Of a stretch of 64,000 nt of DNA, positions 2,584 to 64,000 are shown one piece after another (the stretch's first letter is position 1; each line of letters starts with the position of its first letter). The DNA comes from Eledone cirrhosa. Taxonomy: Eukaryota. A model generated the notes under the pieces. The model was given only the letters and a program-made list of their open reading frames with translations. It searched no databases and was not told the origin of the DNA. The position numbers and the translations under genes are program-made. Location of the stretch: contig OZ024742.1 of NCBI GenBank assembly GCA_964016885.1, positions 201,562,001-201,626,000 on the forward strand, given 5' to 3'.

Positions 2584-2678
2584 CAGGGTTTCCCCAAAAC
2601 ATGTATACATAATTCAACAGCATTCTTTTAACTATTGCCTGTACCGGTAATCAAAGTTTGTATACGTATTTGGGGACA
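2584..2678. mobile_element. Tiny Tc1/mariner-type MITE remnant
   Basis: TA|CAGGGTTTCCCCAAAACATGTATAC ... GTATACGTATTTGGGGACA imperfect terminal inverted repeats in a TA context. Confidence 0.45.
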
Positions 2679-2690
2679 TATATATATATA

Positions 2691-3311
2691 TATTGTTATG
2701 CTTTAGGAAGGTCATGTTGCCAATAAGAAACACATGCACCAGTTACTTTCACTTCAATTTATTATAAATTAAATTCATAAATTTAGGAATTTATAAATTT
2801 CCGGTTGGTTGGTTGGTTCCACAACCAGACGATTGTTCATATATTGTCAAAGTTCTTTCGCCACACATTCTGTGACCGCTTCAGTAACTGGGGATTCTTT
2901 TCTTTGTTTTTGTGCCTCTCCTTTGTTCTGTACTACGCCATTTTGTTTTTGTGAGTGTTGTGTGCTTAGTTTGCGCATGTGTTACATCCGGTTGTCTGTG
3001 TGTGTTTATATTTGTTTATTTTATTTGTTTATTTACATGTTACTGGTTGGTTGTTTGTTCTATGTGTGTGTGTGTTTTCATTTTGTCCTTAATTGTAAGT
3101 TGTGAAGTTGCTATTCCATTCATGTTTTCTATTTAATTTTGGTTGGAGTTCATTTATGTTTATTGCCTCTGTGATTTGTCTAAACATTGCGTCTTTTCTG
3201 TGTGTAGATTCTATTTTTATTTCTATGTTCTCTAATTTACCCTTATGTTCTATTTTAGCATGTCGGTGGAGTCCAGATGATTCTTTACTATCTTGAAGCT
3301 CTCGCCAGGGT
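2691..3311 (-). mobile_element. Nematis-like PLE 3' fragment (end of GIY-YIG ORF plus pLTR)
   Basis: WRELQDSKESS...RQITEAININELQPKLNRKHEW matches the end of the 41797-44301 ORF; pLTR matches 44300-44700. Confidence 0.9.
2846..2888 (-). ncRNA. Hammerhead ribozyme type I, core mutated (CTGAAGC)
   Basis: gtta-CTGAAGC-ggtcaca/tgtggc-GAAA-gaac-TT-tgac; paralog of 44503-44545. Confidence 0.6.
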
Positions 3312-4160
3312 CCTTTAGTACTTCTTAATAGACAACAGTGTAACCTATAGATAAGTAACATAATCTAGAAATTGGTTATAACATCATATGATAGGCACTT
3401 ATTTGAAACACCATTAATGTAATTTAGGAGAATAAATTTAACCAAGAAAACCAGCTAGTTACCTCCCCTTACGCATTAATTCCCCTTGGTCATACACACA
3501 CTTCCGGAATATAATATCATCACACAAAACTAAACAACATGATCTATTAATTAAGAATCGACAAGATACGGTTTACAACTTGGTTATATGCTGAACCATC
3601 GTGAATTATATGATAGACCCGTGGTCTATATATTGCGTCTCATGGATTATGTGAGTGGTGGTGTGCGCGAAGACAGTGGTACTGTTTTGCCTGCGATATA
3701 ATATGTTTTATAATATGTTTGATATTTTTGATATTTTGGTGTTTCTCTACATTCGGGACTGTATATCATACAGGTGTATGCGAAAAAATGATTTAATAAT
3801 TCAGCCCACATAATAATATCGATTGCCTGCTTCAACTGCCTGACCCTGCAAGTAACAATCTGACGCACTCTAATCCTGTATAAATAAGACACGCGTGCAT
3901 GCTACACGTGAGATTGTTTCATACACTGACTACTCTAAACTTTCCTCTTGCTTTATCTTAATAAACTGCCAATGCTTCATTTTTATTTTTATTTTTATTT
4001 TTATTTTTATTTTTATTTTTATCCTTTAACCTTTATATGTAAATTGCCTTGCTATATCATTTTGATGGATGTCATCCCACTGTGGATCAATATGTGCATA
4101 TGTTTTTATATGTCTCTTGTGTTGAAAAGGAGGTCAAGTATGTTATAGATCACTAAATAG

Positions 4161-4209
4161 TTGCTCCGAAGAATCCAAACCTCGGTTTGGATGAAACAAT
4201 TGTAAGCAA
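4161..4209 (+). ncRNA. Hammerhead ribozyme type I, CCGAAGA (U4C) core
   Basis: TTGCT-CCGAAGA-ATCCAAACC tc GGTTTGGAT-GAAA-CAATTG-TA-AGCAA; palindromic minimal stem III. Confidence 0.88.
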
Positions 4210-4462
4210 ATAAATGATTTAAACTGAACTTTCATTATTGTAATCTCTATATAACTGCGCTGTAAAACAATCGATGTTATTACATTGAGCTATTTATCTT
4301 ACTGGTAATAAGATAGTAATTAATGACTATCTTTCACTATTTAGGGTTTGTATAAAAAATATATAACCATAAAAGGTTTTATTACATACATAACCATAAA
4401 TAGTAACCTTAATACTAATAACTGCTCCATATTGTTGAGCTGATATACAATAAATTACCAGC

Positions 4463-6924
4463 ATGCTGATTAAAGACCAACTCCCTATGTCAACCAAGAA
4501 CATACCTATACCACCCAAAAATACATATGCAAATTATTGATCAACAGTGTAAACTCCTTTATCAATAGAGTGAGATGGAGGACATTCCATTATGATAAAA
4601 ACAAATCTAGCAAGGATAATAATACCAACAAATTTGACTCCTTCGGCTTTAAAACCTTTAGAAGCCCCCCTCATAGCACACTACTAGACCACTTCGAAAA
4701 TGACCTAATAAAACTAGTTAAGAATATTAAATACAAAAAACACCGTAATAAAAAGAACACCTTCTTAAAGAAACTTAGCACCTCTATTAATCATTTCAAA
4801 ACTAGTAGTAACATTTTTGTACATGCCGACAAAACTAATAACATATACAGCCTAGATTATAATACTTATAGAAAGTTTATATATAATGAACTACATAAAA
4901 GCTACAAGAAAACCACTATGAAAAACTTAGAAGATATTAATATGGAAGGCTATAATATATTATCCAAACTAGGGCTCCAGAGACATACACAACCTTATAC
5001 CCCAAATCCCCCTAGATTCTCTCTGAAGGACCATAAGGAGGACTTCATTAGCAACCCCTCGATTAGACTCATCTGCCCCTCCAAGTCTGACATTGGCATT
5101 ATCAGTAAAAAAATTCTAGATAAAATCATCCCACATATTAAACTCAAGATTTACCTTAAACAATGGGGAAATACGGGTGAAGTGATTGAATGGTTCAAAA
5201 ATATCAAAGATAACAAGGATAAAAAATTTATTCAATTTGATATCAATTATTACTACACCCCTATTTCCCCTATCCTACTAAATAAGGCACTTATAATGGC
5301 CATGGACAATAGTGACCTGACTAGACCCCAGATTGATGTCATACTTGCGGCCCGTAAAACACTAATCACCTTTGAAGACCAATTATGAACCCGCAAAGAT
5401 ACGCAAAACAACTTCGACATTACCATGGGGTCTAGTGACTCGGCGCAGGTCACTGATTTAGTCGGCCTATATTTACTTAACCAAATCCATAGAGAGCTTC
5501 CGTACCTCAGCGGTGGTTTGTATCGCGACGATGCACTTCTACTTATAGATTATAAAAAATTCAATATAGAAAGAATTAGAAAACTATTGCACAAAACATT
5601 CAAAAGCTATAACCTTAGTATTACCATGGACAAAAACACCCAAAACGTCAACTTCCTAGACGCCACACTCTACCTGGACTCAATGATATATGCACCTTTC
5701 CACAAACCTAATGAAAAACTCATCTACGTAGATACCAAGTCTAACCACTCTATATTAAACTCTATCTCTAAGGGAGTATCTAATAGAATCTCTAATCTAT
5801 CCTATGACATAAACACATTTAACAATAACTCGCAGTATTATAATCAGGCATTAGCTAGATCAGGCCATAATACAGGGATAGAGTTCCTACCTACAAAAAC
5901 GCATAACTACAACATTATTTCACACAACATGTCCATGGGAAAATTTAATAATAGGAATAGCAACCACACACACACTAATAGAGATGATAACAACAAAAGT
6001 AACCCACACCACAGAAATTACCATAGTAACATTAAAGGAAACAAATCACCAGACATAAAAAACAGAAATAGAAGAAATAATACATTTTTCAACCCTCCTT
6101 TCAATCTAAACGTCTCTACCAACCTTCCTAGGGCTTTCTTCTCACTACTGGATAAACACTTCCCATCCGGCCACGGGTACCATAGCCTTTTAAACAAAAA
6201 CACTATTAAAATCTCATAATCTACTACGCCTAACTTAGCATACCACATAGCTAGTAGCAATAAAAGAAAAATTAATTCTTACTTCCAACAAACTAAATCA
6301 CAACAGACGATAAACCTTCAAAATAACATTCAAAATAACATTATAGCAACTAACCATAATATCAATAGAAATAATAGTATTAGTACTAGTGTAAACATTA
6401 ACGCTGCGAACGACAACCCACATAACCATAACCCTATAGCTAACATCCAAACTTCTACACAGCATAATAACCGGCAGACTAACACCCAGAATAATTGTAA
6501 CTGTAGATCAAATAGAACCTGCCCTTTAGATAAAAAATGCTTAACCAAGGATATCATATACTCATGTACAGTCACAACTAACAACTCTTCTGAAACCTAT
6601 ATAGGCTCTACTTCTAACTGCTTCAAAACTAGATACAATTCGCACCTCCACTCTTTCAAAAAACACAGTCTAGCCAACTCCACTTCACTATCTAGCTACA
6701 TACACTATCTAAAAACTAAAAATAAAATATATACACTTAAATGGGAAGTGGTAGGTAGTGCAATATCGTACAAACCACCTAATAAATGTTGTAACCTCTG
6801 TCTACTAGAGACCCATACTATCATCTTCTCTAACCATAATCTCCTTAATAAAAAATCAGAAGTGTTCGCATATTGCCAACACCGCTTCCGACACTCTTTC
6901 CAAAACTTTAAACCCTATATATAA
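4463..6924 (+). pseudogene. Naiad-like PLE RT + GIY-YIG endonuclease (one frameshift, stops at 5386 and 6217)
   Basis: STKNIPIPP, HADKTNN, LKDHK, FIQFDI, FDITMGS, GGLYRDD, NFLD, SNH, then CNC..CPL..C, IIY..YIG, CNLCLLE, LLNKKSE..CQH. Confidence 0.92.
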
Positions 6925-8999
6925 CAATGTCCGACTGGAACCGTCACCACCCCTAGCAATTAGCATCAGTAGCACACCTTACACCTCATCTCCACACCCA
7001 TTAATATACTCTGAAGGTAATACTGGCAGCATTATAGTACCATCTACCCTGGGGATACCCCCATGTACTTCTAATTCTGATATTTCGGCCGTGGATTACT
7101 TAAACTGCATTGCACAAATATATGATTAATATAAACTGTAGACACGGTATTGGTTGTGCTAACATAATCCTGTGCATGGAGTGCCACCATGAGATAGATT
7201 GATGATTAAGTAGGTAATCTTATTGTTATGTAACTATATATTCTATACGATCAGTACAATGAATTATGCACAGGTGATACATGAGTTAGGAGTTTCTGTG
7301 TTGCTTGATGATCTGATTAGTATCTTTTGATGAGAGAACTGGTCCCCGGACCACCCTGGTGAATTTACCGGCGATGCAGTCATACAATGATCCGAAACTT
7401 GCCGGGAGTCTTGTATGATAATAAGACCATTATTAGTAATAAAACCCTTATTAGTAGTGAGACCCATATAATTAATTTTGTAGTCTGACTCTTCTTATAG
7501 ATTGTCCAGGTGTGGCACTCCATATTAGATTGTAATCATCATGATATGAACTCCTTTAGTACTTATTAATAGACTCCACTCTAATTTGTAGATAAGATAC
7601 CTAATTTAATTTATATATGTGATGGGAGTTTATGTATTATTTATGTATTGCTTGATGGCCAGACTGGTGTCTTTATATGGGAGATTTGATCTCCAGATTG
7701 TAATCATCATGATATGAACTCTTTAGTACTTATTAATAGACTCCACTCTAATTTGTAGATAAGATACCTAATTTAATTTATATATGTGATGGGAGTTTAT
7801 CTATTGCTTGATGGCCAGACTGGTGTCTTTATATGAGAAATTTGATCTCCAGACCACCATGGAGATACTCAGATTTACCAAGGATTCAGACATACAATGA
7901 CCCAGAGCTTACCGGGAGTCATATATAATAATAGGACCATGCCAGGTCCTGCGGGAGGAATTACACTTACAAAGAACATTGATTTGGGGGTCTGACTCTT
8001 CTTATAGAATGTTCAGATATGACACCCCTTAATAGAAGGTAATCATCCTGATATATACACCTTTAGTACTTCTTAATAGACAACAGTGTAACCTATAGAT
8101 AAGTAACATAATCTAGAAATTGGTTATAACATCATATGATAGGCACTTATTTGAAACACCATTAATGTAATTTAGGAGAATAAATTTAACCAAGAAAACC
8201 AGCTAGTTACCTCCCCTTACGCATTAATTCCCCTTGGTCATACACACACTTCCGGAATATAATATCATCACACACAACTAAACAACATGATCTATTAATT
8301 AAGAATCGACAAGATACGGTTTACAACTTGGTTATATGCTGAACCATCGTGAATTATATGGTAGACCCGTGGTCTATATATTGCGTCTCATGGATTATGT
8401 GAGTGGTGGTGTGAGCGAAGACAGTGGTACTGTTTTGCCTACGATATAATATGTTTTATAATATGTTTGATATTTTTGATATTTTGGTGTTTCTCTACAT
8501 TCGGGACTGTATATCATACAGGTGTATGCGAAAAAATGATTTAATAATTCGGCCCACATAATTATATCGATTGCCTGCTTCAACTGCCTGACCCTACAAG
8601 TAACAATCTGACGTACTCTAATCCTGTATAAATAAGACACGCGTGCATGCTACACGTGAGATTGTTTCATACACTGACTACTCTAAACTTCCCTCTTGCT
8701 TTATCTTAATAAACTGCCAATGCTTCATTTTTACTTTTATTTTTATTTTTATTTTTATTTTTATTTTTATTTTTATTTTTATTTTTTTTTTTTTTATTTT
8801 TATTTTTTTTTTTATTTTTATTTTTATTTTTATTTTTTTTTTTATTTTTATTTTTATTTTTATTTTTATTTTTATATGTAAATTGCCATGCTATATCATT
8901 TTGATGGATGTCATCCCACTGTGGATCAATATGTGCATATGTTTTTATATGTCTCTTGTGTTGAAAAGGAGGTCAAGTATGTTATAGATCACTAAATAG

Positions 9000-9048
9000 T
9001 TGGTCCGAAGAATCTAAACCTCGGTTTGGATGAAACAATTGTAAGCAA
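9000..9048 (+). ncRNA. Hammerhead ribozyme type I, CCGAAGA core (3' pLTR copy, one stem I mismatch)
   Basis: TTGGT-CCGAAGA-ATCTAAACC/GGTTTGGAT-GAAA-CAATTG-TA-AGCAA. Confidence 0.82.
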
Positions 9049-9249
9049 ATAAATGATTTAAACTGAACTTTCATTATTGTAATCTCTATATAACTGCGCT
9101 GTAAAACAATCGATGTTATTACATTGAGCTATTTATCTTACTGGTAATAAGATAGTAATTAATGACTATCTTTCACTATTTAGGGTTTGTATAAAAAATA
9201 TATAACCATAAAAGCTTCTATTACATACATAACCATAAATAGTATCCTT

Positions 9250-9319
<70 letters not shown>

Positions 9320-10935: not shown

Positions 10936-11267
10936 TTGGTTGTGATTACAATTATGCTAATCTAAGGAGACTAAATGTAATTAAAAACGAGATGAAGATG
11001 GATGAGTTAATCTGATTGGTTGATTGATTGAAAGTTCGATATATGATAGATCGACAAGAACTAAACTAAAAGATAGAAATTCACGCACACACAAATAAAC
11101 AAATACACACAGAGACGAGCATACATATACATAGATGTACCTTTATAGATAATCTCAAATGTCGCATGATTAACACTTTGTGATAGAAACGTTTGGAAAT
11201 TGTAATTTAATATCTTTCTCCCTAACTCTCTCACAACAGTGTTGAGAAGACATACAACTATCCCTGT

Positions 11268-11280
11268 CTATCTATCTATC

Positions 11281-11311
<31 letters not shown>

Positions 11312-11312
11312 C
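11268..11312. repeat. (TCTA)n microsatellite, left flank of the LINE stack
   Basis: Direct reading. Confidence 0.9.
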
Positions 11313-11314
11313 TC

Positions 11315-11774
11315 CTATGGCGAAAGAGGTTGTATGGTGGACAAGGTTGAAAGGGCTGAGTCAGACACCTTTCTCTCCGGCCAACAACTGATTCTTTTTT
11401 TCAAATACCACTTTGGAAGAAGAATCAGGATGGAGAGAGAGGTGCTGTACTCCAGCAAGTTTTATGAAAGGTGGGTGAAAGTGGCGAGAATGGCCCGAGT
11501 GAATGGGCCCTCTCTCTATATCAGCCTGTAAGTTGAGGAAAAGGTGTGGAGAGGAAAGGAGTAAAAACTCTTCGTACTCCTGGAGACGAGGGTTGCACAT
11601 TTTTTCGTGGGTATGTGTTACCCATATGAACTGTCTCCCCCTATTGGGGAAAATCGACTAATTTTTAAATTGCATTTGTGATATTTTACACGTTTTTATT
11701 GTATGTAAACTTCCCCCTTTGTATTTGTCCCCTTCTTTTGTGCCCCTGTGGCTAATAAAGAAACATATCTGTCT
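11315..11774 (+). mobile_element. Tx1/L1-clade LINE, 3' fragment (copy 1)
   Basis: FLSGQQLILFFKYHFGRRIRMERE..WVKVARMARVNGPSLYISL plus 3' UTR ending AATAAAGAAACATATCT; closely matches 20766-21225. Confidence 0.9.
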
Positions 11775-12007
11775 ATCTCCGGATGGTATAGATGTTCTTC
11801 ACATTGGCTCCTCGATTATTGGATATATTACGTGTTAACAGTAAGTGTTTGTCTGTATTCTTGCGTTATTGTGTTAATTAACCTCGTTGCCTGGGTCTTC
11901 GGGCATTTGGGTTAATTTATTTCACCCCTTCTGGGGTGAAATTTTTCATCCTAAAAATCTTGTGATTGTCTCTACGCTAGTGGTTTTGGAAGCCATTACC
12001 ACAGGTA

Positions 12008-13877
12008 ACGATGACACGCCCAATAAACAAACTGAAGGAGAGCGGGTAGCGGAGGCAACAAGCCTCTCTACTGAAAGAATAAGGATTATTAGAAACATTG
12101 AAAAAATGGAGCCTAAGTCTAATGAAAAAAATGTGAAAAAAATTGACTCGGAGAAATTGCCAAAATTAATGGATGCTGTTTCAACTTTTCACGGTGCCAC
12201 GCCCACCAGCAAAGGTGAAAGAGAAGTAGTAACTGTGACTACACTACAAGTCTCTCGGATACTGAAAATATAAGTGACCATTTTGAAAAAAATGGAGTCT
12301 AACCCCAACGGGGAAAAAATGTGAACGCATACACCAACATAAATAACACAAACACAACAAAAAATGAAAATTGTAACAACAAAAAACAAGAAAACAACAT
12401 TTCGACAAATGTAAACAAAGAGGGGGCGAACAAAATGACGTTCGCCAAACTACCAAAAAAACAATTGTGTATGAACCTATTGACATTTCCAACATGGCCC
12501 AGCAAATGGAAAATGTACGGAAGTATATAACTTTGGAGGAGAATGGTCTATTTTCTTTAAATTCTCCCCCAGAGCTAAAAAAGGGAAATAGCTTAAAAAC
12601 TATTATTTATAGGACAATATCCAACAAAACCCGTAAGCCAGTACAACTCACACAGACAGAGATTGATCTGGGTTTAAAAGATCATCTGAAAAACATTGTA
12701 TTCATTCGGAAGGAGAGACTCTACGGTAGTCTATCCATCCGAATGAAAGATAAATTGACGGCCGAAAAACATTCCCTGGCCCCAATTATCTCAACCTTAT
12801 TTACCTTCTTCCCCACTTATTTGGGAAGAAGAACGCAAAGATGACCATACACAGGATCGATCCAGATATTGATTTCTGGGCGGTACTGTGTGGCCTCTTC
12901 GACTTGAAAGAGGATGCGGGTAATTTCGGTAGGTAAGTCTTCCAACAACGTGTTCGGTGGAATTAGCCTGCAAGTTCTGGTGCAAATGCAGCCAGAACGA
13001 ATTGCTAGGATCCCCGACCGCATATTGCTGGATGGGCTTGCCTGCTTACACATCAGAGTAGAGGGTAGACGACCCGCTTGTTAGCTCTGTGGTGGCAGAG
13101 GTCACCTGAGGGCTGCCTGTTCCCAAGCAAATAAAAAAACACCGATTTTGCCCACCCCAACAACTACAACACTACCAACACAACCTCCACCACCATCACA
13201 AAAGCAACTAACACCACAAGTTAAAACACAACTGACCCCCCCCCCCCACACACACACAGAAAACAAATACATTAACACCCACATCACAAACACGAGCCGA
13301 AAATGTACCCCTCCCCTTGAATACGGAAGACGACCCACTTTCGTCGTCAGACGAGGGGGGTGGGACACTTTCATAAAGTTAAAAGAAAAAAAAGAAAACA
13401 CACCACAGGAACACAAATACAAACAACCCCTCCCCAATATATAACACAGACATCAACACAAAAAAACACACAACAACAGCAAACAAAAAGAAAAATATGC
13501 ATACACTTACATAAACACAATAAACAAAAAACTGTTAAACGTTATTTATAATAACAACTTAATAAAAACCGAAGGTTCGAATTTCGCACAAGCAACGGGG
13601 CTTCCCCATCTTAAAATGATAAAAGCCCCAATGGACATTTACAAAACGTTAAAAGACACTTTTAAAGAGGACGTGGGGGCCCCCCTTCGTCAGACCCATT
13701 AACCGTGTCCTAAAAAATCCCCCCCCCCCCCCCCCAGACACCCACACAACTCCAAACATCCCAACCCCACCACACACTGATGCCCCAACACTTCCACAAA
13801 CCACCACTTCACCCAACAACCCATCCCCCACCCCCATGGAAATTGTGTTACCCAGTCCCCGGGACGCAGAGAGGTAA
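12008..13877 (+). pseudogene. LINE ORF1 (gag-like) with C-x2-C-x4-H-x4-C zinc knuckle at 13079-13120; start approximate
   Basis: VEGRRPAC*LCGGRGHLRAACS followed by a Pro/Thr-rich tail; multiple stops and frameshifts. Confidence 0.65.
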
Positions 13878-13901
13878 GTTCCTTTTCTCTTTAACACCAA
13901 T

Positions 13902-16900
13902 ATGGCTGTGTTGAGAGTAGGTTGTCTAAATGCGCGTGGTCTGGGCTCACCTTGGAAGCAAGCAATGCTTCTAAATGACCTCAGGTCACGGTGTATATCA
14001 TGTGATGGTTATTTGCGATGCCCGGATCAGCAGCGTACGACAGCTGGCCCCCGCCTTTGATGACTTTGAGATGCACGCATCTCTCTGTCAGCCCAGGGGT
14101 GGGGGTGGGGTTGTCGTTCTGCTGCAAAAACATCTGGGTCTCGCTACACAGACGGTACACTTGGACCCGGAGGGTCGACTAGTGGTTCTGGACCTTGGCA
14201 GTGGTGAAGGCGAAGCTTTCAGGCTGGTCGCCGTCTACGGCCCTTTTGGGTCAACGCAGCCGGACTTCTTCCATCGTCTGGAGACTTTTCTAGGGAGATC
14301 CCGCTCCTTGCTTTTAGTGAGGGACTGGAATTGTATCCTAGATGCACGTTGGGACTATGTAAGAGCATGTCTTGATAGAGGGGGTTGAAACAGCCTCAAG
14401 GGGTCAATCGGCCGATTCGACCTGGCCGATAGATATCAAATAGATTTTCCGACTGTGCCAACCTGGACTTGGACAAACCATAACGGTCAATCTAGATCGT
14501 ACCTATATAGGTTCTTAGTTAGAAATAAGGATAGGGACGTTTTAAGTTGTCCAGAAATGCGCATGGTTGGCTATTCAGACCACAAGTTAGTGACCTCCAA
14601 GGTCAATCTTGATAGAACGCATAGGCAGGGACCCGGTTACTGGAAGCTCCACTTGTCCTTACCGGCAAGTAAAGCTTACAGGGACCGGATTAGTACTTTA
14701 GTTAAGGAGCGGTTGACGAGCGCCATCGTCAACAGCAGGTGGTGGGGCTCTCTCAAAAGAGAGATTAGAGTAGCGGCGTCAATAGAAGTTAGTAAGGAGT
14801 TAGCCTCAGATAGAAATAGGAAGGAAAGGGAGTTGGTAGATAGTGTAGAAGAGGCAATTAAAAGCGGCGACGTAGCCAGAGTGCAAGCGTCGAGAACGGC
14901 CTTGGACCAGTTCTTCGACGCGAAACACGAAGGCTGCGTTCGAAGCAAAATACGTGCTCTGGGAAACTAGGGGACCAAAGCTGTTAGCTGGACCCGCGTG
15001 ACAGAAGCCAAAAGTGGGATTAGATCCACTATCCGGTCTTTGCGAGACCAGGATGGACGGGTGATCCTTGAACCTTAGCAGATGTGCGAGGACTTTCAAA
15101 GGCACTTTGCCCGATTGTTCGGAAGGTGCGAGGGGCCGGATGGGGATGTGGACTTCGGTCCATACCTCGACGGCCTGCCGCGTCTTTCGGACGAGGAGGT
15201 GAAGTCTTGCGAGAGGCCGATCTCAGCTGCTGAATTAGGGGACGTGCTGAGCCAATACGGCAGACGCAAATCTCCGGGCCTCGATGGTCTTCCATACGAA
15301 CTCTATTTAAGTATGCCGGACTTGTTCTTCGATCTCCTCGAGGCGGTCTACTGCAACTGGCAACAGAACGGGAGAATTTCCTATGAGGAAGGACGAGAAC
15401 AAGGGGGATGAAATAAGTAATTTCAGGCCCATAACTCTGCTAAATGCAGAGTTAAAGATTTTGGCCAAGGTGTTAGCAAAGAGGTTGGCGCTTGTCGAGG
15501 GCAACCTGGTGGGAGATGCGCAGACATGCGCCATTCCGTCCAGGTTCATTCACGACAACCTCCACCTCATGTGATACATCATAGAGAGGGTTGGGAACGA
15601 ACCCGGCTTTGGTGGGGCCCTGATCAACTTGGATCAATCCAAGGCGTTCGCTAGGGTCGACCATCGTTACCTGTATGCGGTGTTAGTGGCGGCAGGTTTC
15701 GGATCCGTTTTCAGGGGCTGGATCACTGCCATGCACAGCAGCCGCATCTGCTCTAGGGTCAAGGTGAACAGCTACCTCTTGGAACCGTTCGAAATCACGC
15801 GGTCCATCCGACAGGGATGCCCTCTCTCCTCCCTTCTGTATGTATTGGCCCTAGAGCCACTGCTGCGGAAGTTGGAGTTGTTACAGGGCATCCCTTTGGA
15901 ACCGGGATTGCGGAAAGCGGTGTCGGCCTACGCCGATGACGTGACAGTAATGGTGTCAACCGCCTTGGAAGTCGGGGTGATCGGCACCTTACTGGAGGAA
16001 TCCGAAAAATTTACAGGGGCTAAGCTGAACCGGGACAAGTCAGTCGGTTTGCAACTCGGCGAGTGGAGGGGCAAACCGATGGCCTCCAACGACGTTGTCG
16101 GACGTTGGACGGAGGGCCCGGTGCAGTTGGTCTGGATCGGGCCAGACCTCCAGGTGGAGAAAAACTAGGGTGAGGTATCGAACAGGGTGCTTGCGCTGAA
16201 GCAGAAGTGGGCTGAGTGCAAACTATCCCTGAAAGGTCCGGCGGAGGTGGCTAACGCTTATATAGCGTCCGTCATCTATTACCGCCTGACCGTCGTGCCT
16301 TTCCCAAGGGAAACGCTCACCAAAATGGAGCGCGCACTCTTCCAATTCCTTTGGAAGAAGCGGGCTCCTTTGGTGAGGAGATCCATCTGCTGTCAACACT
16401 CTTCGAAAGGAGGGCTGGGGTTGCCGTGGCTGCTGATGCGTAAACACGCATTAAGGCTACGGCACCTTCAGGTATTCCTCACCGATCAACCGGTGTGGGC
16501 CCCGTTTGTGAGGCGAGCTTTTCCGAGACTCGTATTGCTCACCGAGCTACAGCCCTGGGTCAAGCAAAGACCGAGTGTGCCCAGGCGCTCACGGTTCTCT
16601 GACAGGCGGACCCGGCTATCGGTGGAGACTCCACTTCGTCATTCTATAGAGGGCTGGTGGTTAGTAGGTGCGACGACGCCCTCGGAGAAGCCCTAGGCAT
16701 GGAAGAAGACGAACTGGCCAGCCTATTCGGGAGAACATTTGGCCCGGGACCTATGGAGAACTTCCAGAGGTCCCTGGCCTGGCAGTGCTACCGAGGGGCG
16801 CTGCCCGTTCGAGAAAAGCTCTACAGACACGGGCGCCCGGGTAGGGACCCTCGAAAAAGATCTGTCCCAGATGCGTGCGCGACGAGGAAACCGTTGCACA

Positions 16901-17277
16901 CGCATTGGTACATTGCTCGGGCGTTGCCGATATGTGGGGATATGTCGAACGACTGCTGTCACGGGTAGGACAAATCCGGTTGACCACAGAGTCCTTTGTA
17001 ACGATCAAGCCGCCTCCCCCTTCAAAAATGAAGGAGAGGCGGTCTTCCTCTGTGTAATAGCCATGGTGAAAGAGGTGGTATGGTTGACACGTTTAAAAGT
17101 GCTGCGGGCGGACACTTTCTCTCCGGCCAACAACTGGTCCTTTTCTTTAAATACCATTTTAAGAGAAGGATCAGAATGGAGTGAGAGGAGCTCTACCCCA
17201 GCAAGTTTTATGAAAGGTGGATGAAAGTAGCAAGAATGGCCCGTGTGAATGGGCCTTCTCTCTTTATCAGCCTGTAG
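13902..17277 (+). pseudogene. LINE ORF2: AP endonuclease + reverse transcriptase + C-terminal zinc finger
   Basis: CLNARGL, DWN, SDHK, GYWKL, KSPGLDGLPYELY, FRPITLLN..KILAK, DQSKAF.RVDH, RQGCPLS, AYADDV, GGLGLP, CPRC..EETVAH..HC. Confidence 0.93.
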
Positions 17278-17518
17278 GTGGAAAGGTGGAAGTTCAAAGG
17301 AGCACCCCTCTCTGTGCTCCTAAGGAAAAGGGTTGCACACTTTTTCGGGGGTGTGTGTAACCCCCAAAACGCCTCCTCCCTATTGAGGACTGTATTGTTA
17401 ATTTTATATTTATTTGTTTTTTACTCTTTCCTTTATGTAACGCCCCCCCCCCCCCCCTTGTATTTGTCCCCTTCTTTTGTGCCCTCGTGGCAAATAAATA
17501 GAAATGTATCTATCTATG

Positions 17519-17561
<43 letters not shown>

Positions 17562-17565
17562 TTAT

Positions 17566-18812
17566 GTCGTCCGTCATCTACTACCGCTTGACTGTCGTCC
17601 CTTGTCCCCGTGAATACCTCACCAAGATGGAACGCATGATCTTCCAGTTCCTGTGGAAGAAGCAGGCTCCACTGGTGAGGACCGTCTGCTGTCAACAGCA
17701 TTCCAACGTGGCTAATGATGCGCAAACATGCGCTGAGGCTACGGCATCTTCAGGTGTTCCACATCGACCAACCGGTGTAGGCACCCTTTGTGAGACAGGC
17801 CTTCCCACAACTTGTCTCGCTGACGGAGCTGCAGTCCTGGGACAAGCGAAGACCGAAAACGATGGCCGCCTGGCGCATTGAATGCGCTCAGGCGCTCACA
17901 GTCCTCTGGCAAACGGGTGCAGCAAACAGTGGAGACTCCACTTCGACATTCTCTACAGGGATTGTACGTTACAAGGGCGACGACATGCTCGGAGAGACTC
18001 TAGGCGTCGAAGACGATGAGCTCACCAGTCTGTTTGGTAGGACTTTCCGCCCGGGACCTATGGACAACTTCCAGAGGTCCCTGACCTGGCAGTGCTACCG
18101 AGGAGCTCTACCGGTTCCTTACAAGATCTACAGACACGGACAGGGATCCTTCCAAGGGGACGTGTTCAAGATGCGCGCAGTACATTGAAACCGTCCTGCA
18201 CGCAATTGTACACTACCCGGGCGTAACCAACCTGTGGAACTATGCAGAACAACTGCTGTCGCGTATGGGATAAATACAGTGGACTGCTGAATCCATAGTA
18301 AGGATCAAACCGCCAGCCTCTTTCAAAAACGAAAGAGAGGCGGTTTTCCTCTGTACAGTGGCTATGGTGAAAGAGGTTGTATGGTGGACGAGATTGAGAG
18401 GACTGAGGACAGATGCCTTTCTCTCCGGGCAACAATTGATTCCCTTCTATAAGTATCACTTTAGAAGGAGAATCAGAGTGGAGAGAGAGGCACTGCACCC
18501 CAGTAAATTTACTGAAAGGTGGGTGAATGTGGCAAAAATGGCCCGAGTGATTGGGCTTTCTCTGTTTATAAGCCTGTAGGATAAAGAAGAGAGAAAAAGG
18601 AAGAAAGGAGCACTTGCACAACACGCTCCTGTAGTTGAGGGTTGTTCTATCGACGGGGTATTAAACAACCCATATGTGGTGCCTCCCCCCTATTGGGGAT
18701 TTCGATTGTTGTAATTGTTTGTATATTTTTTACACGACTATATGTAAAATCCCCGCCATGTCTTTGTATTGTCCCCTTTTCTTGTGCCCCCTTGTGGCAA
18801 ATAAAGAAATAT
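17566..18812 (+). mobile_element. Tx1/L1-clade LINE, 5'-truncated (copy 3, diverged subfamily)
   Basis: SVIYYRLTVVPCP...WQCYRGALPV...GLSLFISL and 3' UTR; begins right after (TATC)n. Confidence 0.9.
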
Positions 18813-18829
18813 ATCTCTCTTTATACCTG

Positions 18830-21225
18830 CTCAACGGTTCGGGCAGGGCGGCGCGCCGGGAGGGGCTATGGATTTTGGTCCATACCTCGACGAACTACCG
18901 CGACTCTCAGACAGCGAGGCGAAGTTCTGCGAAAAACCGATTTCAGTTGCTGAGATAGGGGACGCGCTGAGCCAATGCGGCAAACGCAAATCTCCAGGTC
19001 TCGATGGTCTACCCTACGTATTTTACGTAGCAATGCCGGACTTATTCTCCGTCTCCTGGAAGCGGTCTACTGCAAATGGCAGCAGAACGGGAGAATTCCC
19101 AGTTCTGTGACCGGGGGCGTAGTCACACTAGTCAGGAAGGACGAGAATAAGGGGGATGACATAGGCAACTTCCGGCCATAATTCTGCTAAACACAGAGTT
19201 ACAAATTTTGGCCAAGGTGTTGGTAAAGAGGCTGGCGCTTGTCGTTGAGAATCTGGTGGGAGAAGCGCAGACATGCGCAATCCCGACCAGGTCCATACAC
19301 GACAACCTCCACCTCATGCTATACATCATAGAGAGGGTAGGATGTAAACCTGGCTTCGGTGGGGCCCTGATCAACTTGGATCAGTCTAAGGCTTTCGATA
19401 GGGTTGACCATCGTTACCTGGAAGCGGTGCACGAGGCGGCAGGTTTCGGACCCGTGTTCAGCGGCTGGATTGCTGCAATGCATAATAGCAACATCTGCTC
19501 AAGGGTCAAGGTGTAGGGCTACCTGTCGCGATCCATTCGACAGGGATGCCCTCTCTCCTCCCTTCTGTACCTTATGACTCTCGAGCCACTACTGCGGTAG
19601 TTGGAGCTATTGCAGGGAATCCCTCTGGAACCGGGACTGCGGAAAGCGGCGTCGATCTACGCCCACGAGGTGACAGTAATGGTGTCGAGCACCTCGCAAA
19701 TCGAGGAAGTCGGCACCTCAATGAAGGAATACGAAAGGTTCACAGGAGCGAAGCTGAACCGGGACAAGTCCATCGCTTTGCAGCTCGGATCGTGGAGGGG
19801 CAGACCGACGCTCTCCGATGGCGTCGTCGGACGCTGGACGGAAGGACCGGTGGAGAAGAACTGGAACGAGGTGACGGCCAAGGTGTTTGCACTCACCCAG
19901 AAATGGGCCGAGTGCAAACTATCCTTGATAGGTCGAGCGGAGGTGGCGAACACTTTTATAGCGTCCGCCATCTACTACCGCTTGACCGTCGTACCTTGTC
20001 CTGCCAAAACGCTCACCAAAATGGAGCGCGCGCTCTTTCAATTTCTTTGGCGGAAGCGGGCTCCTTTGGTAAGAAGGTCCATCTGCTGCCAACACCATTC
20101 CAAAGGGGGGCTGAGATGCCATGGCTGATGATGCGCAAACACGCGCTCAGGCTGCGGCATCTCTACGTATTCCTCACCGGACAACCGGTGTGGGCCCCGT
20201 TCGTGAGGCGAGCCTTCGCACTACTCGTCTGACTGACCGTGCTGCAGTGCTGGGTTAAGCAAAGACCGAGGAAAATGAGCGACTGGCACATCGAATGTGC
20301 TCAGGCGCTCACAGCCCTCTGGCAGGCGGACACGGCGATCAGTGGAGACTCCACTTCGTCATTCTATAGAGGGTTGATCCGCAGCAAATGCGACGACGCG
20401 CTCGCTGAAACTAGGCGTAGCGGAAGAAGAACTGGCCAGTCTGTTCGGTAGGACCTTCCTCCTGGGACCGATGGACAACTTCCAAAAGTCCCTGGCCTCG
20501 CAGTGCTACCGAGGAGCTCTACCAGTTCGAGACAATCTCTACAGACATGGGCACCCAGGCAGGGACCCTTCGAAAAAGATCTGTCCGAGCTGCGTGCGAA
20601 ACGAAGAAACCGTCGCGCACGTATTCATACAGGCCCTTTGGGGCTATGTAGAACGACTATTGTCGCGGGTGGGACCAATCCGGTTGACCACCGAGTCCAT
20701 TGTCATGATCAAACCGCCACCATCCTTCAAAAACAAAGGAGAGGCTGTTTTCCTTTGTGTGATAGCTATGTCGAAAGAGGTTGTATGGTGGAGAAGGTTG
20801 AAAGAGTTGAGGTCAGATTCCATTCTATCCGGCCAACAACTGATTCTTTTTTTCAAATGCCACTTTGGGAGAAGAATCAGGATGGAGAGAGATGTGCTGT
20901 ACCCCAGCAAGTTTTATGAAAGGTGGGTGAAAGTGGCGAGAATGGCTCGAGTGAATGGGCCTTCTCTCTATATCAGCCTGTGGGTTGAGGAAAAAGAGGA
21001 AGAGAGGAAAGTGGTACAAACTTTTCGTACTCCTGGAGATGAGGGTTGCACATTTTTTCGTGGGTATGTGTTACCCACATGTAATGTCTCCCCCTATTGG
21101 GGAAAATCGACTAACTTTTAAATTGCCTTTGTGATAATATTTTACCCATTTTTATTGTATGTAATCTTCCCCCTTTGTATTTGTCCTCTTCCCTTTGGGC
21201 CCCTGTGGCTAATAAAGAAACATAT
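18830..21225 (+). mobile_element. Tx1/L1-clade LINE, 5'-truncated (copy 4)
   Basis: KSPGLDGLPY, DQSKAFDRVDH, CPSC..EETVAH; 3' end followed by degenerate TCTA repeats. Confidence 0.9.
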
Positions 21226-22367
21226 CTATCTTCTTGTCTTTCCATCTTTCTATCTGTCTGTCTATATATCTACCTACACTTCTCTATAGCTGTCTATCTT
21301 CATACATTTCTCTCTATCTATCTCATCACAGACATAGAGACAGACAGACTCACAGACATACAGGAAGATAAATGTATATATATAGAGATAACACGATCAG
21401 CCTAATTTAATGGATATATGATTGATAATGATTAAAGTAAATATGAATGAAAATTATGTTAATGGATTTGAATGAATTTAAAATAAAACAGGGATGTCTG
21501 GATTGTCATGGATTTACACATAGAAACATGCAATCAAGAAATTATTAAATTAATATTCTTTACCGTCATTTTTTACAGGTACTAGTATATAAATAAGCAG
21601 AAACGTACACACATTCTTCATAGAAAATAAAAACTATGACTATATACTATACGTTTAAGAAATATTGTAGCGAGAGATAGATAGATAAAGAGATTGAGAG
21701 ATAGACAGACACAGAGACAAGGGTGGGGGTGACTGAGAAAGTCCCAGAGGTAAGTAGAATACAAAAGATGAATATAAATGGACGAATTGTGTTCCTCTTT
21801 GGTCGCCATGAAAACAGAACGACCGTACATCTAGCATACATCTAAGTTACACTTCCGAACGAAGTCTCTGCTTCGATTGCTTTTTTTATTCATTTTATTC
21901 TTCTCTAAGACGTCGTCATCTTATTTCCAGTACCCTAAGGCATTAGCGTACTCTCCTCACATCATTAAGGACTTTTATTGACAAGGGAACAATAATTTGA
22001 AAATTTTGTTTCTGGTAAGCGATTTAAGATGGCGGAAACGAATTGTTTCAGCAGACAAACATTCGCCATTGAAATCCAAATACTACCTTGAAGGAAGTCT
22101 AATTTTTATATTACAGAATCATAATAAGATGAATTAAGAGCGGAACCTGTTTCAATATAATATAAATTCGCATATTTAGCTTCCAGGTTATTTCCTTATA
22201 AAATACTCGTAAATTTGGAGTGATTATATTGGTTTATAACGCTATTTCACTTTTCGTTTACATTATATGGCTTTTCACAGAATCAGACAGCAACGTAAAT
22301 ATCATTTTCTTGTACGACATGTGTTTCAAATAACCTGTTTTCTATGGTATACAGATCTCATCAAACA

Positions 22368-28904: not shown

Positions 28905-28978
<74 letters not shown>

Positions 28979-29076
28979 TATAAATATACATATATATAAA
29001 TATAAATATACATATATATATAAATATGCATATACATATATACATATACATATACATATATATATATATATATATA

Positions 29077-29503
29077 TATTGTTATACTTTGGGAGGGTCA
29101 TGTTGCCAATAAGAAACACACGCACCAGTGCTTTCACTTCAATTTATTATGATAAATTTATAAATTTAGGAATTTATAAATTTCCGGTTGGTTGGTTGGC
29201 TCCACAACCAGACGGTTGTTTATATATAAACAGAGAAAAGAATCCCCAGTCAATGAAGAGGTCACAGAATGTGTGACGGAAGAACTTTGACAATATATAA
29301 ACAACCGTCTGGTTGTGGAGTCAACCAACCAACCGGAAATTTATAAATTCCTAAATTTATAAATTTATTATAATACATTGAAGTGAAAGCTATTGGTGCG
29401 TGTGTTTCCTATTGGCAACATGAGCCTCCCAAAGTATAACAATATCGGTTTCAACACACGTTTTCAGATAAAGAATCTTGCTAAACAAATTCAGAAACGA
29501 AAT
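29077..29503. mobile_element. Tail-to-tail Nematis-like pLTR fragments (29077-29227 inverted vs 29293-29443) with mutated HHR 29249-29291
   Basis: Matches 44490-44757; core reads ATGAAGA/GGAA; (TA)n on both sides. Confidence 0.88.
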
Positions 29504-29515
29504 ATATATAAATAA

Positions 29516-30644
<1,129 letters not shown>

Positions 30645-40825: not shown

Positions 40826-40998
40826 ATTAACACTTAGAATTTAATATTCTATCATACTATTTCATTATAATACCATTATATATATTTTAAAGGATTGTAA
40901 ATAAAACGAGTAAATCAGACAAAGTTGGAATTCCTCTTATTAACATAATCTTCTATACACAATCATACACACCCGTGTATATTTACCTATCTATATCT

Positions 40999-41047
<49 letters not shown>

Positions 41048-41234
41048 TATATAAATATACATATATATATATAAATATATTGTTATACTTTGGGAGGGTC
41101 ATGTTGCCAATAAGAAACACACGCACCAGTTGCTTTCACTTCAATTTATTATATATTTATAAATTTACAACTTTACAAATTTATAAATTTCTGGTTGGTT
41201 GGTTGGTTCCACAACCAGATAGTTGTTTATATAT

Positions 41235-41279
41235 AGTCATAGTCCTTTCGTCACACACTCTGTGACCTCTTCAGTGACT
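41235..41279 (-). ncRNA. Hammerhead ribozyme type I (inverted pLTR)
   Basis: AGTCA-CTGAAGA-gGTCACA/TGTGAC-GAAA-ggac-TA-TGACT. Confidence 0.85.
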
Positions 41280-41796
41280 GGGGATTCCTTTCTTTGTCTC
41301 CGTGCCTCTCCTTTGTTCTGTCCTACGCCATTTTGTTTCTGTGTGTGTGTTGTGTGCCCAGTTTGCGCATGCGCCACATCCGGGTGTCTGTGTGTGTTTA
41401 TGTTCATTTATCTATTTGTTTATTTATTTTTTTATTTACATGTTATTGGTTGGTTGTTTGTTCTATGTGTGTGTGTGGTTTCATTTTGTCCTTAATTGTA
41501 AGTTGTGATGTTGCTGTTCCACTCATATTTTCTATTTAATTTTGGTTGTAATTCTTTTATGTTTATTGCCTCTGTAATTTTGCATCTTTTCTGTGTGTAG
41601 ATTCTATTTTTATTTCTATGTTCTCTAATTTACCCTTGTGTTCTATCTTAGCATGTTGGTAGAGTACAGATGATTCTTTATTATCTTGAAGGTCTCGCAA
41701 GTGTTCATTTATCCGTTCCCCTATACTACGAGCTGTCAAAGAGAATAACCAAGACGAACACACAGACACACAAAATAGGGTAGATAACAACAATGA

Positions 41797-44301
41797 GCCA
41801 GTGGAAAGAGACAGAGTAATTATGAGAGACATAGAAACAACCATGAGGCTGTTGGTGGAAATAGAAATAGAAACAACACAACTAACTATAACAATAGCAC
41901 TAGCACACATAAAGCAGCAGCCTGGAACTCTCCGTTTTATAATCCCTCCGATAAATCATTCGACCTGCGACGAGTCCACGCCACGACTTTACCATTTAAC
42001 ACACGCACGCAATTGCCGTCGCAGGTCGATGAACAAACAGAAGCACAATTTAGTATAGCTAGATCCGAACTTAGAAATATTATAGAACAGTATAGCAAGA
42101 AGCATAATAGAATGGAGGCCCAGCAACTGGGAGAAAAATCTGCAAATGGCTTGCGTAAGCTCATGCAGCGCTCACGTAATGGAGAGATAGCATGCTTTCC
42201 AACAGACAAGTCTGGCAGAATGTCGGTTGACAGCCTGCCAAACTACATCCAGGCAATGCAACCCCACATCACAAGAGAGGTAACACCACAGGAGCATGAG
42301 GATAGAGAAAAAGCCCTCAATGCCCATATGGTGATGTGGACGAATATAATGCAGCCCAACAAAAGGACCTCCAACAAATTCCAGGCCTGGAACAATGACG
42401 TGCCGGCGTTGTATGGGCTTCGAAAAGACCATAAAACGGGCTGTGACCCTGTCGCGGGACCACCAACACGGCCAGTCTGTGGAGCTAACATTGCTAGTAA
42501 CTACAGAATGTCCTACTTCCTCTCCCTGATCATACGCCCCATCATTGAAATGTCCCCAGATGTATGTGACAGCACGGAGGACCTCCTCAGCAGAATCGGC
42601 GTGAGTAACCGATCTGGGGACCTAACAAACTGCATAATAGGCAGTATGGATGTTGTGTCCCTGTATCCATCTATTGACGTGGATTTTGCTGTGGAGAAAT
42701 GCGTAGAAATGATCAGCGAGAGCAAGGTTGAGTTCCGTGGGATTGATACCAGTGAGCTGGGACTTCTACTTAAGCTTACCTGTAGTAATAGTTACCTAGA
42801 CACATATGACGTTAGCAACCTGTGCCCTACAAGACCAGCAAGAGGCAGACCACCTACCATTACCTCAATGGCCAAGAAAACCCACACAGATAGATGGAAC
42901 GGGTGGATCAGAGCCATACGGACACCCGAAAACCACGATGAACTGAAGAAAATGATTGCACATGCGGTAGGGGCCAGCATAAAACTAACCCTTAAGGAAC
43001 ATATGTTCAAATTTAATGGAAAAACATATGCCCAAGAGGAAGGAGCAGCCATTGGTGTTAGCATTGCAGGCGACATAGCTAACTTATTCATGGTATGGTG
43101 GGACAGTAGACTTAAACTTAAACTTAAAGAACAATTAGAAGACAGCTTAACCCTGATAATGTACTCCCGCTACGTAGATGATATAAACATCGTAGTTAAG
43201 ACACCCCCACTAGAGAACAGTCAGGAACTAGAGAAAAACACAATGGAAAGCATCCAACAGATAGCAAACTCCATCCACCAGAGCACTAGAGTTACTATAG
43301 ACTACCGAAGTAGACACCCCAACCATCGATTACCTGTACTAGACACAGAGCTCTGGTTAGATACCATTAACAACCAAAAACAAATCCTCCATTCCCATTA
43401 TGCCAAACCCATGACTTCCAAACATCTGATCCACCGAAACTCGGCCATTTCAGACCATACCAAAATCAACATACTGATTGCGGATTTGGTACGGGTGATG
43501 AGAAATGTGTCCCGCATGTGCAACCCCGAAGAACTAGAGAGACACATACAACACTTCATCCACCGTATGCAGTTCTCTGGCTACAATCAGAGAGATAGAA
43601 TCAGAGTGTATAGAGGAGCCAGAACTAAATGGGAAAAAATGGTAAATAATGACATAAATGGGACCTGCCCCTTGTATAGGAGCAAATTTTGGAATAGAAT
43701 AGAAAGAACTAGGAACAAGGCTAATAGAATAAACTCATGGTATGATAGCAATAAATACCAGAGTGTTATGTTCATCGATACAACCCCTAGAGGCGAACTA
43801 GCCTACAAATTTAGAAGGGCCCTAAATAAACATAAACTCAATATTAAGATAGTAGAAAGACCAGGAACCTCCTTAAAAACACTTATTAGCAAGACATACC
43901 CTTTCCAAAGACCCTCATGTATAGATAAGAAATGTATAACCTGTAAAATAAGCCCCCATATTAACTGTAAAACTAGAAATGTAGTGTATAGCATAAGATG
44001 TACTGAAGGACAATGTAGAGACAAAAATATAGTGTACATAGGTGAGACAGCTCGTAGTGTAGGGGAACGGATAAATGAACACTGATGAGACCTTCAAGAT
44101 AGTAAAGAATCATCTGTACTCTACCAACATGCTAAAATAGAACAGAAGGGTAAATTAGAGAACATAGAAATAAAAATAGAATCTACACACAGAAAAGACG
44201 CAATGTTTAGACAAATCACAGAGGCAATAAAGATAAAAGAATTACAACCAAAATTAAATAGAAAATATGAGTGGAACAGCAACATCACAACTTACAATTA
44301 A
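41797..44301 (+). pseudogene. PLE RT + GIY-YIG, one long open frame with TGA TGA at 44083-44088
   Basis: PTDKSG, LYGLRKDHK, PPTRPVCG, GSMDVVSLYPSI, QEEGAAIG, RYVDDI, LPVLD, SGY, C..C..C, NVVY.I.C, YIGETARS..R..EH. Confidence 0.92.
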
Positions 44302-44502
44302 GGACAAAATGAAAACACACACACACATAGAACAAACATCCAACCAGTAACATGTAAATAAACAAATAAATGAATGAACATAAACACACACAGACACCCG
44401 GATGTGGCGCATGCGCAGACTGAGCACACAACACACACACAGAAACAAAATGGCGTAGGACAGAACAAAGGAGAAGCACAAAAACAAAGAAAGGAATCCC
44501 CA

Positions 44503-44545
44503 GTCACTGAAGAGGTCACAGAGTGTGTGACGAAAGAACTATGAC
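44503..44545 (+). ncRNA. Hammerhead ribozyme type I
   Basis: GTCA-CTGAAGA-gGTCACA gagtg TGTGAC-GAAA-gaac-TA-TGAC. Confidence 0.85.
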
Positions 44546-45119
44546 AATATATAAACAACTATCTGGTTGTGGAACCAACCAACCAACCAGAAATTTATAA
44601 ATTTATAAATTTATTATAAATTTATTATAATAAATTGAAGTGAAAGCAACTGGTGCGTGTGTTTCTTATTGGCAACATGACCCTCCCAAAGTACAACAAT
44701 ATCGGTTTCAACACACGATTTCAGATAAAGAATCTTGCTAAACAAATTCAGAAACGATATATATATATATATATAACAGAATTGAACGAACATTATTCTG
44801 CCGTCACAGAACTAAAACCCTTTTTTCCCACTACAAGCCGAATATTACATAAAAGAGGGACATCCCCCAACTATATAAACCTTAATCTAGTTAGAAAAAT
44901 ATAAAAACAATCTCTTCTCAACATATATTAATAACCTTAAATTACCACACTAATAATGTAAAGATATGCTGATGAGAATAGGTGCAAATATGCGATAATG
45001 AATGTGTCTAAAAACGTCCATAAGTATGTATATATATGTGAAAATGTATATAAATAAGTAAATATATATATATGTTTGATGTGTATAGTTAGATGTAAGT
45101 GTATTCATGTATTAAAGTG

Positions 45120-52153: not shown

Positions 52154-52721
52154 TAAAAATAAAATAAAATAAAAATAAAATAATAAAAATAAAAATAAAA
52201 ATAAAAATAAAAATAAAAATAAAAATAAAAATAAAAATAAAAATAAAAATAAAAATAAAAATAAAAATAAAAATAAAAATAAAAATAAAAATAAAAATAA
52301 AAATAAAAATAAAATAATAAAATAAACAATGAAAAATAAGGGGTGCTATCAGTCGCAGTTGGGCGGGGTGCTGTCAACATATAGTTACATACAAGCATAC
52401 ACATGGATAAGAGAACAGACAAGAGTAGATAAGATAGATAGGATTAGGTAAGAGTAGGTAAAAAATAGGTGAAAAACAGACTTATAATATATATAAGAAA
52501 ATATAAAGAAATATATAACAAACTTACATATAAAATAAAATATACAGATAATAGTGATACAGGGTAAGGAATGAAATAAAATAATATAAAATTAAAATTA
52601 AAATTATATAAAATAGAACATAATATAATATAATCATAAAATAAGATAAAATAAGGTAAACTAAGGTAAAATAAAATAGACTAAAGTAAAATAATATAAT
52701 ATAAGATATAATTAAATGTAA

Positions 52722-52753
<32 letters not shown>

Positions 52754-53573: not shown

Positions 53574-53605
<32 letters not shown>

Positions 53606-54155
53606 TTACATTTAATTATATCTTATATTATATTATTTTACTTTAGTCTATTTTATTTTACCTTAGTTTACCTTATTTTATCTTATTTTATGATTATATT
53701 ATATTATGTTCTATTTTATATAATTTTAATTTTAATTTTATATTATTTTATTTCATTCCTTACCCTGTATCACTATTATCTGTATATTTTATTTTATATG
53801 TAAGTTTGTTATATATTTCTTTATATTTTCTTATATATATTATAAGTCTGTTTTTCACCTATTTTTTACCTAATCCTATCTATCTTATCTACTCTTGTCT
53901 GTTCGCTTATCCATGTGTATGCTTGTATGTAACTATATGTTGACAGCACCCCGCCCAACTGCGACTGATAGCACCCCTTATTTTTCATTGTTTATTTTAT
54001 TATTTTATTTTTATTTTTATTTTTATTTTTATTTTTATTTTTATTTTTATTCTTATTTTTACTTTTACTTCCTTAATATCCTTTATCTTCTATTATTTTT
54101 CATTCTTCAATGTCTTGGATTTGTTATTGCTTGTATGGTATGTAATTAACCTTTA

Positions 54156-61642: not shown

Positions 61643-64000
<2,358 letters not shown>

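Follow-up and report, generated by a model that had tools for sequence, protein, structure and literature searches.

A long interspersed nuclear element lineage of Eledone cirrhosa with a preference for (TATC)n microsatellites and a sister subfamily in a satellite repeat

In a 64,000-nucleotide stretch of the Eledone cirrhosa genome (contig OZ024742.1, positions 201,562,001 to 201,626,000; hereafter the window), four pieces of long interspersed nuclear elements (LINEs) lie stacked head-to-tail among TATC repeats at window positions 11267-21325. It is very probable that the lineage to which they belong, which encodes an apurinic/apyrimidinic-type endonuclease (APE), occupies (TATC)n in a single orientation and register, the likely route being an endonuclease nick of the GATA strand that primes reverse transcription at that site. 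An earlier reading made from the window sequence alone (the sequence-only reading) had described four same-orientation copies with differing 5' ends and TCTA-type flanks, and this description was borne out by the sequence, Tandem Repeats Finder (TRF) and self-BLAST. The four pieces, A (the last ~450 bp of an element), B (~5.73 kb), C (~1.25 kb) and D (~2.4 kb), all lie on the + strand, share a common 3' end and differ in their 5' truncation points. Their 3' terminus reads ...AATAAA(G/TAG)AAA, followed by two variable bases and TATCT. Pairwise identities in self-BLAST are 90.9% for A/D, 76% for A/B and B/D, 74% for A/C, 73% for C/D and 71% for B/C; the copies therefore represent three subfamilies, with A and D in one.

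The association with TATC was assessed by counting exact patterns across the 3.0-Gb genome. There are 16,792 instances of the 3' motif common to A/D, C and related subfamilies (7 for the reversed control), and in 9,108 of them (54%) the motif is followed, after two arbitrary bases and in exact register, by TATCTATCT. The opposite orientation, with GATAGATAG at the same place, occurs once genome-wide. The local background frequency of the 9-mer TATCTATCT is 1.3e-4, and in the window outside the A-D stack a TATC 8-mer is present in 0.22% of 20-nt windows; the association is well beyond chance expectation. The 5' side gives a similar picture. The B-type 5' end has 83 genomic occurrences, 57 of them immediately preceded by TATCTATCT, and a search with the 5' end of B, whose query included four flank bases, returned loci with a TATC-like 5' flank in 30 of 30 cases, half of them (15/30) directly behind another family member. 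Where a 3' end is followed by a further full-length 5' end, the spacer measures 4n+1 nucleotides in all 27 distinct cases, ranging from 9 to 97 with a mode of 13-21. An element counts as target-specific in PMC4494074 when its target is present in >20% of flanks; here the target accompanies 54% of 3' ends, 37 of 40 young loci and 57 of 83 B-type 5' ends. The dominant target is TATC, rather than the (TC)n or (TTC)n by which the Kibi and Koshi elements are defined. Only a minority of 3' flanks consist of (TC)n (for instance those of L115, L137, L146 and L153), and in two such cases, L195 and L200, TATC stands on the 5' side.

Young copies allow the junctions to be read more directly. An intact second open reading frame (ORF2; P0001, 1145 amino acids) was recovered from a fetched genomic locus, and a search with its endonuclease gave 150 scored loci, of which 149 are 100% identical and 127, by hand count, retain an open reading frame no shorter than 1130 codons. 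From this subfamily, termed Y (L160:1364-4798 and L212-L251), 40 intact loci were taken across the list without view of their flanks, except one that was taken because it is in tandem. Their mean identity is 99.74% over 3.7 kb and identical copies occur on different contigs; judged from these sequences, subfamily Y has probably been active recently or is active now. Within 20 nt of the element, a TATC 8-mer is present 5' in 36/40 loci, 3' in 35/40 and on at least one side in 37/40, and the GATA orientation was found in none (0/40).

TATC might instead be nothing but a tail that the element makes at its 3' end, with stacks arising where tails seed further insertions or by later expansion of the repeat. 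TATC does stand behind most of the examined 3' ends and poly(A) was seen at none of the 3' junctions examined; tracts also lengthen after insertion, with spacers of up to 97 bp. Such an origin was nevertheless largely ruled out by the 5'-truncated Y copies, of which 11/13 have a TATC 5' flank, where no element-borne 5' sequence is possible. In addition, the first array of the window (11267-11313) is target and not tail, because no element 3' end precedes it. Several off-target copies (L011, L019, L020, L029, L240 and L249) start with TATAT without any added TATC, and TATC is therefore no obligatory tail. Finally, non-periodic sequence is duplicated at the insertion site, which means that the 3' repeat derives from the target. 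These duplications span 9-21 bp: 9 bp in L234, 12 in L232, 13 in L063, 15 in L229, 16 in L228 and in L011, 18 with one mismatch in L144/L211, ~18-19 in L029 and 21 in L135. They were read by eye or by script; for old B, C and D copies, in which internal deletions and other insertions make automatic 5'-end calls unreliable, only hand-read junctions are cited and no percentage is given. The pair L144/L211 represents one non-repeat site used in the same register by two subfamilies. The tail-only account is accordingly very improbable, and TATC is the target of these elements, not merely their tail.

The stack might also have been built by local tandem duplication, or by random insertions that built up passively in neutral, repeat-rich DNA, and these origins are almost negligible in probability. 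A and D are, to be sure, 91% identical, and passive accumulation is cited in a passage of PMC3812793 for Waldo-A/B near CA repeats. Duplication is at odds with the presence of three subfamilies at 71-76% identity and with the relatives that each copy has elsewhere. When the last ~440 bp of each copy were compared with the fetched genomic loci, minus four loci that overlap the window, the best outside match was 96.0% identical for A, 94.4% for B, 95.6% for C and 93.6% for D, and the matches closer than the best sibling in the window numbered 53, 137, 132 and 45, respectively, with overlapping loci counted twice. When the 3' ends of D, C and B, along with the 5' end of B, were searched against the genome, each gave 40 scored matches, nearly all distant or on other contigs. 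Since each copy has closer relatives outside the window, the A-D stack represents four separate insertions and not a local duplication. Passive accumulation is opposed by the exact register, by the 9,108:1 orientation bias and by near-zero-age copies that already lie in TATC. The main proposals of the sequence-only reading thus hold: the insertions were independent, as each copy's 45-137 closer matches elsewhere indicate, and they were orientation-specific. Neither of the two outcomes that it named as refuting was seen: the copies are no local duplicates, and 5' flanks are not random, with TATC repeats before most of the truncated young copies and of the B-type 5' ends. Its suggested check by pairwise divergence likewise excludes tandem duplication.

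A sister subfamily, S, uses a different target. Its ORF2 is 84% identical to that of Y, with 77% identity in the endonuclease and 90% in the reverse transcriptase (RT), and its insertions lie at a single position of a 72-bp satellite. The S 3'-end pattern has 332 matches; among the first 100 listed, AC comes next in 100 and TA in 0, and 29 of 30 S loci continue with ACTCTAT. Ends of the GGCTAATAAAGAAA (TATC) type are followed by the satellite site in 0 cases; the targets of the TATC elements and S are mutually exclusive, with no cross-use found. The two targets share NNTCTAT(A/C)TA in one register. In 17 of 17 full-length S copies the junction falls at unit position 65, and the sequence there is of donor type even where the array is a variant one; one truncated S copy has a 9-bp duplication. 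In L313, L311 and L304, the unit 5' of the full-length element begins as the variant of the local array and turns part-way into the 72-bp donor type, which suggests that a copy of the target may travel on the 5' end of the S RNA and be joined by homology. Examples of S include L272-L321 and L252:1938-7584 (contig C1, ~4.229-4.259 Mb), where six 3' ends lie ~5.8-7.1 kb apart.

The S endonuclease lies within the spread of the TATC subfamilies, being 81% identical to that of D when the latter are 63-90% identical among themselves. A comparison of 14 S with 17 TATC sequences, frameshifted TATC sequences being left out, gave 23 near-fixed differences, including R46H, G116W, X118A, D121E and F122Y. 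Residues 114-118 align with the L1 loop 117-120, which contacts DNA and whose Asn118 touches the major groove (PMC8565326, in part); G116W, X118A, D121E and F122Y fall in or next to this likely DNA-contacting loop. The betaB6-betaB5 hairpin loop was also considered as the determinant of the switch and found unsupported. Tentatively, and with somewhat less than an even chance of being right, the TATC subfamilies and S may form one recently active lineage, in which a nested sister (ORF2 84%, endonuclease 77-81% identical) switched to the satellite through a few changes in the equivalent of the L1 117-120 loop, and not in the hairpin loop, aided by RNA-borne copies of the target.

It is probable that insertion proceeds through target-primed reverse transcription (TPRT), and the steps proposed here follow from what is established for that process. 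A first nick would fall near 5'-GATA^GATA-3' on the bottom strand, reverse transcription would start at the element end, GAAA plus two bases, and a second nick would likely follow 9-21 nt away on the TATC strand. Each insertion would leave TATC on both sides and so regenerate the target, and later copies of any subfamily could then stack head-to-tail. The 5' end of full-length RNAs may carry a few target bases, and the 3' end possibly some read-through repeat; annealing of these RNA-borne bases to the nicked DNA would set the register. The AATAAA near the element end could act as a poly(A) signal that yields a short read-through TATC tract, a possibility tempered by the AATGAAA found at the 3' end of some young copies (L212 and L215). 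Contigs from four sequencing runs of unspecified kind yielded no information about transcript ends.

The site is probably selected mainly by the endonuclease, assisted by RNA annealing. Choice by the endonuclease is favoured because in vitro the Tx1L endonuclease by itself makes specific nicks in its target (PMC1950540, in part), because sites with fewer than two units or matching only TAT are used, and because L144 and L211 share their site; the choice of TATC is also retained across subfamilies with endonucleases that are only 63-90% identical. RNA annealing probably helps, since the two bases after GAAA vary at constant register and full-length 5' ends add bases foreign to the target (L234 and L090). 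An unlikely variant gives the RNA the leading part: the endonuclease would nick TA-rich DNA loosely, a read-through (UAUC)n tract would select the productive nicks by pairing, and the target would be inherited through the RNA flank. This variant would account for the constant register behind variable bases (CA, TA, TC, CT, TT, TG and GT), for the recurrence of target-matching variants among them (TC for TATC, TT for the satellite), for the motif that both targets share in the same register, and for the unchanged hairpin loop of S. It would also suit the full-length S copies that bear a donor-type target piece at their 5' end in differing local arrays (L313 and L311), as though the target rides on the RNA. 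It is less easily reconciled with targets that leave the repeat after one unit and are still faithfully duplicated (L229, L228 and L107), with the use of sites matching only TAT (L011, L029 and L144), or with the clustering of S-specific changes at the DNA-contacting loop. Young TA-type copies are, moreover, dispersed on the tree beside identical or near-identical TATC-site copies, although the cases are few and the test is weak.

Several observations weigh against endonuclease-led insertion into TATC and its switch in S. The exact 9-mer is absent at 46% of the 3' motifs, and a sample of 18 non-matching ends, taken in list order from the start of contig C1, is of mixed type (7 of the satellite sister, 7 with degenerate TATCT, 3 of TA type and 1 of TC type); the specificity for TATC is for this reason a strong preference and not absolute. 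Part of the fixed phase seen at full-length 5' ends comes with the element itself (L234 and L090), which makes full-length 5' flanks weaker evidence than truncated ones. With regard to the switch, the hairpin loop of S is almost identical to that of TATC subfamily D, and the S-specific residues may be drift, since the endonucleases of the TATC subfamilies themselves vary widely.

The intact proteins indicate what kind of element this is. P0001 matches Exo_endo_phos (E=5e-8), RVT_1 (E=5e-26) and, below the curated cut-off, zf-RVT (E=4e-5). Its best PDB match is human L1 ORF2 (8sxt and others; E=3e-48, colinear), the R2 protein reaching only 1e-19. Like ORF2 of the L1/Tx1 group, it has an N-terminal APE, an RT and a C-terminal zinc-binding motif in the order of L1 ORF2; aligned piece by piece, the window copies share 55-87% identity with it. 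The fixed 3' end, the 5'-truncated copies and the target-site duplications are those expected of TPRT. The first open reading frame (ORF1), intact in L219, encodes 592 amino acids with one CX2CX4HX4C knuckle, and zf-CCHC was matched below its cut-off (E=0.005-0.19) in 3 of 4 ORF1 pieces, whereas Transposase_22 had no match in the five ORF1 or ORF2 proteins scanned. This corresponds to the Type I-like ORF1 with a CCHC knuckle that, in the part of PMC5203782 used here, goes with Tx1. Among named proteins the nearest comes from Argonauta hians (67% identity in the RT), which points to an octopod host. In an RT tree of 26 chosen rows, which holds no named Tx1, Kibi or Koshi sequence, the lineage groups with the Argonauta protein and unnamed sequences (support 100/100), apart from plant L1, and its branching order relative to fish and turtle elements is not settled. 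The lineage likely belongs to the Tx1 clade. Unnamed ORF2 proteins of ~1150 amino acids (P0003-P0047 and P0164-P0210), 38-45% identical overall and ~50-54% in the RT, form its sister clade. Two metagenome scans found no relative.

The window features are given in Table 1. The spacers are 13 bp (A-B), ~55 bp (B-C) and 16 bp (C-D), and the 13-bp spacer TATCTGTCTATCT is a probable target-site duplication. The 5' boundary of copy C is approximate owing to microhomology. Copy A, up to 96% identical to copies elsewhere in the genome, retains a short C-terminal piece of ORF2 without stops, and the ORF2 remnants of B, C and D are interrupted by stops or frameshifts. Copy B has a decayed ORF1 with a CCHC-knuckle remnant near 13085-13130 and a decayed ORF2 from 13902 to ~17277 followed by the 3' untranslated region (UTR), as delimited by tblastn with an intact relative; its RT still gives a Pfam match (E=1.5e-14). 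The 5' part of B contains a diverged direct repeat (11987-12137 and 12170-12325, 64% identity by self-BLAST). Four loci (L077, L097, L098 and L099) have the first ~520-585 bp of B and are ~80-82% identical to it downstream, and may be recombinant subfamilies. Elsewhere in the window, self-BLAST detected an 849-bp inverted repeat of 97% identity in AT-rich surroundings (52247-53095 and 53236-54070), possibly a foldback element. Other dispersed repeats, short interspersed element (SINE)-like or miniature inverted-repeat transposable element (MITE)-like, with flanking (TA)n, lie at 2678-4417, 6559-9318, 28909-29605, 40976-41737, 44046-44775 and 61703-64000.

Table 1. LINE copies and intervening repeats in the window
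Feature	Position	Strand	Evidence
(TCTA)n/(TATC)n array upstream of copy A	11267..11313	+	TRF, 11.8 copies, 95%; no LINE homology seen upstream
Copy A, 5'-truncated 3' fragment (ORF2 C-terminus and 3' UTR), subfamily of D	11315..11765	+	90.9% to D; tblastn, amino acids 1090-1145
A-B spacer	11766..11778	+	sequence
Copy B, near full-length, 5' end CCGGATGG	11779..17506	+	~89-92% full-length to several genomic copies
(TATC)n array between B and C	17507..17565	+	TRF, 14.8 copies, 94%
Copy C, 5'-truncated, third subfamily	~17563..18811	+	71-74% to other copies; 95% to copies elsewhere
C-D spacer, degenerate, begins TATCT	18812..18827	+	sequence; D homology from 18828
Copy D, 5'-truncated in ORF2 upstream of the RT, subfamily of A	18828..21222	+	self-BLAST
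Degenerate TATC/TCTG tract downstream of D	21223..~21325	+	sequence; TRF 21223-21272

The lineage is abundant, with at least 9,108 in-register ends in addition to intact, very young copies. A sister with a mutually exclusive target offers a direct test of endonuclease versus RNA in site choice, and, if the proposed switch is true, the >100 intact TATC-family copies and the intact S copies would form a natural pair in which to map the change of target in a LINE. Many GATA/TATC arrays of the genome would be insertion hot spots, which bears on repeat annotation and on microsatellite markers in such animals.

Among known systems, human L1 ORF2p has the same colinear APE-RT architecture, and the target-site duplications of human L1 are similar in length to those described here. 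In contrast to human L1, poly(A) was seen at none of the junctions examined, a CCHC knuckle stands in ORF1 with no Transposase_22 match among the five proteins scanned, and the target is TATC instead of TTTT/AA. SART1Bm belongs to the R1 clade. Like the present elements, it occupies a short tandem repeat, (TTAGG)n, in fixed phase and orientation and can stack; according to the portion of PMC7265360 used, however, it is telomeric and depends on a poly(A) tail and on three repeats, whereas here no poly(A) was seen and sites of fewer than two units are used (L229). Tx1L of Xenopus, which lies in Tx1D, is a sequence-specific APE LINE and resembles subfamily S, but its unique transposon site differs from the simple tetranucleotide repeat that holds the window copies (PMC1950540 and PMC4494074, in part).

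The closest parallels are Kibi on (TC)n and Koshi on (TTC)n of teleosts and the crocodilian Tx1-1_Crp group on (TTCC)n/(TTTC)n (PMC4494074), which are likewise APE LINEs of the L1/Tx1 kind specific to a microsatellite with a pyrimidine-rich top strand. A review names ACAY, AC, TC, TTC and TAA as microsatellite targets and calls the mechanism in APE-type LINEs 'not well understood' (PMC3812793); in the parts of these sources available, TATC lies outside the named targets, TTCC and TTTC included. The lineage also differs from the fish and turtle matches of the RT tree in grouping with the Argonauta protein, in a tree without named Kibi or Koshi. Papers on octopus repeats report L1-Tx1 elements, with 13 recently active families in O. 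vulgaris, and the portions seen mention no target (PMC13282606 and PMC8967140), nor does PMC9115989 mention Tx1. No LINE targeting TATC/GATA was found in the literature, a search outside which lie the Repbase and Dfam entries and the supplements and Fig. 3 of PMC4494074, and TATC is probably unreported as a LINE target. Microsatellite targeting by Tx1-type LINEs is already known; the repeat unit TATC appears to be new.

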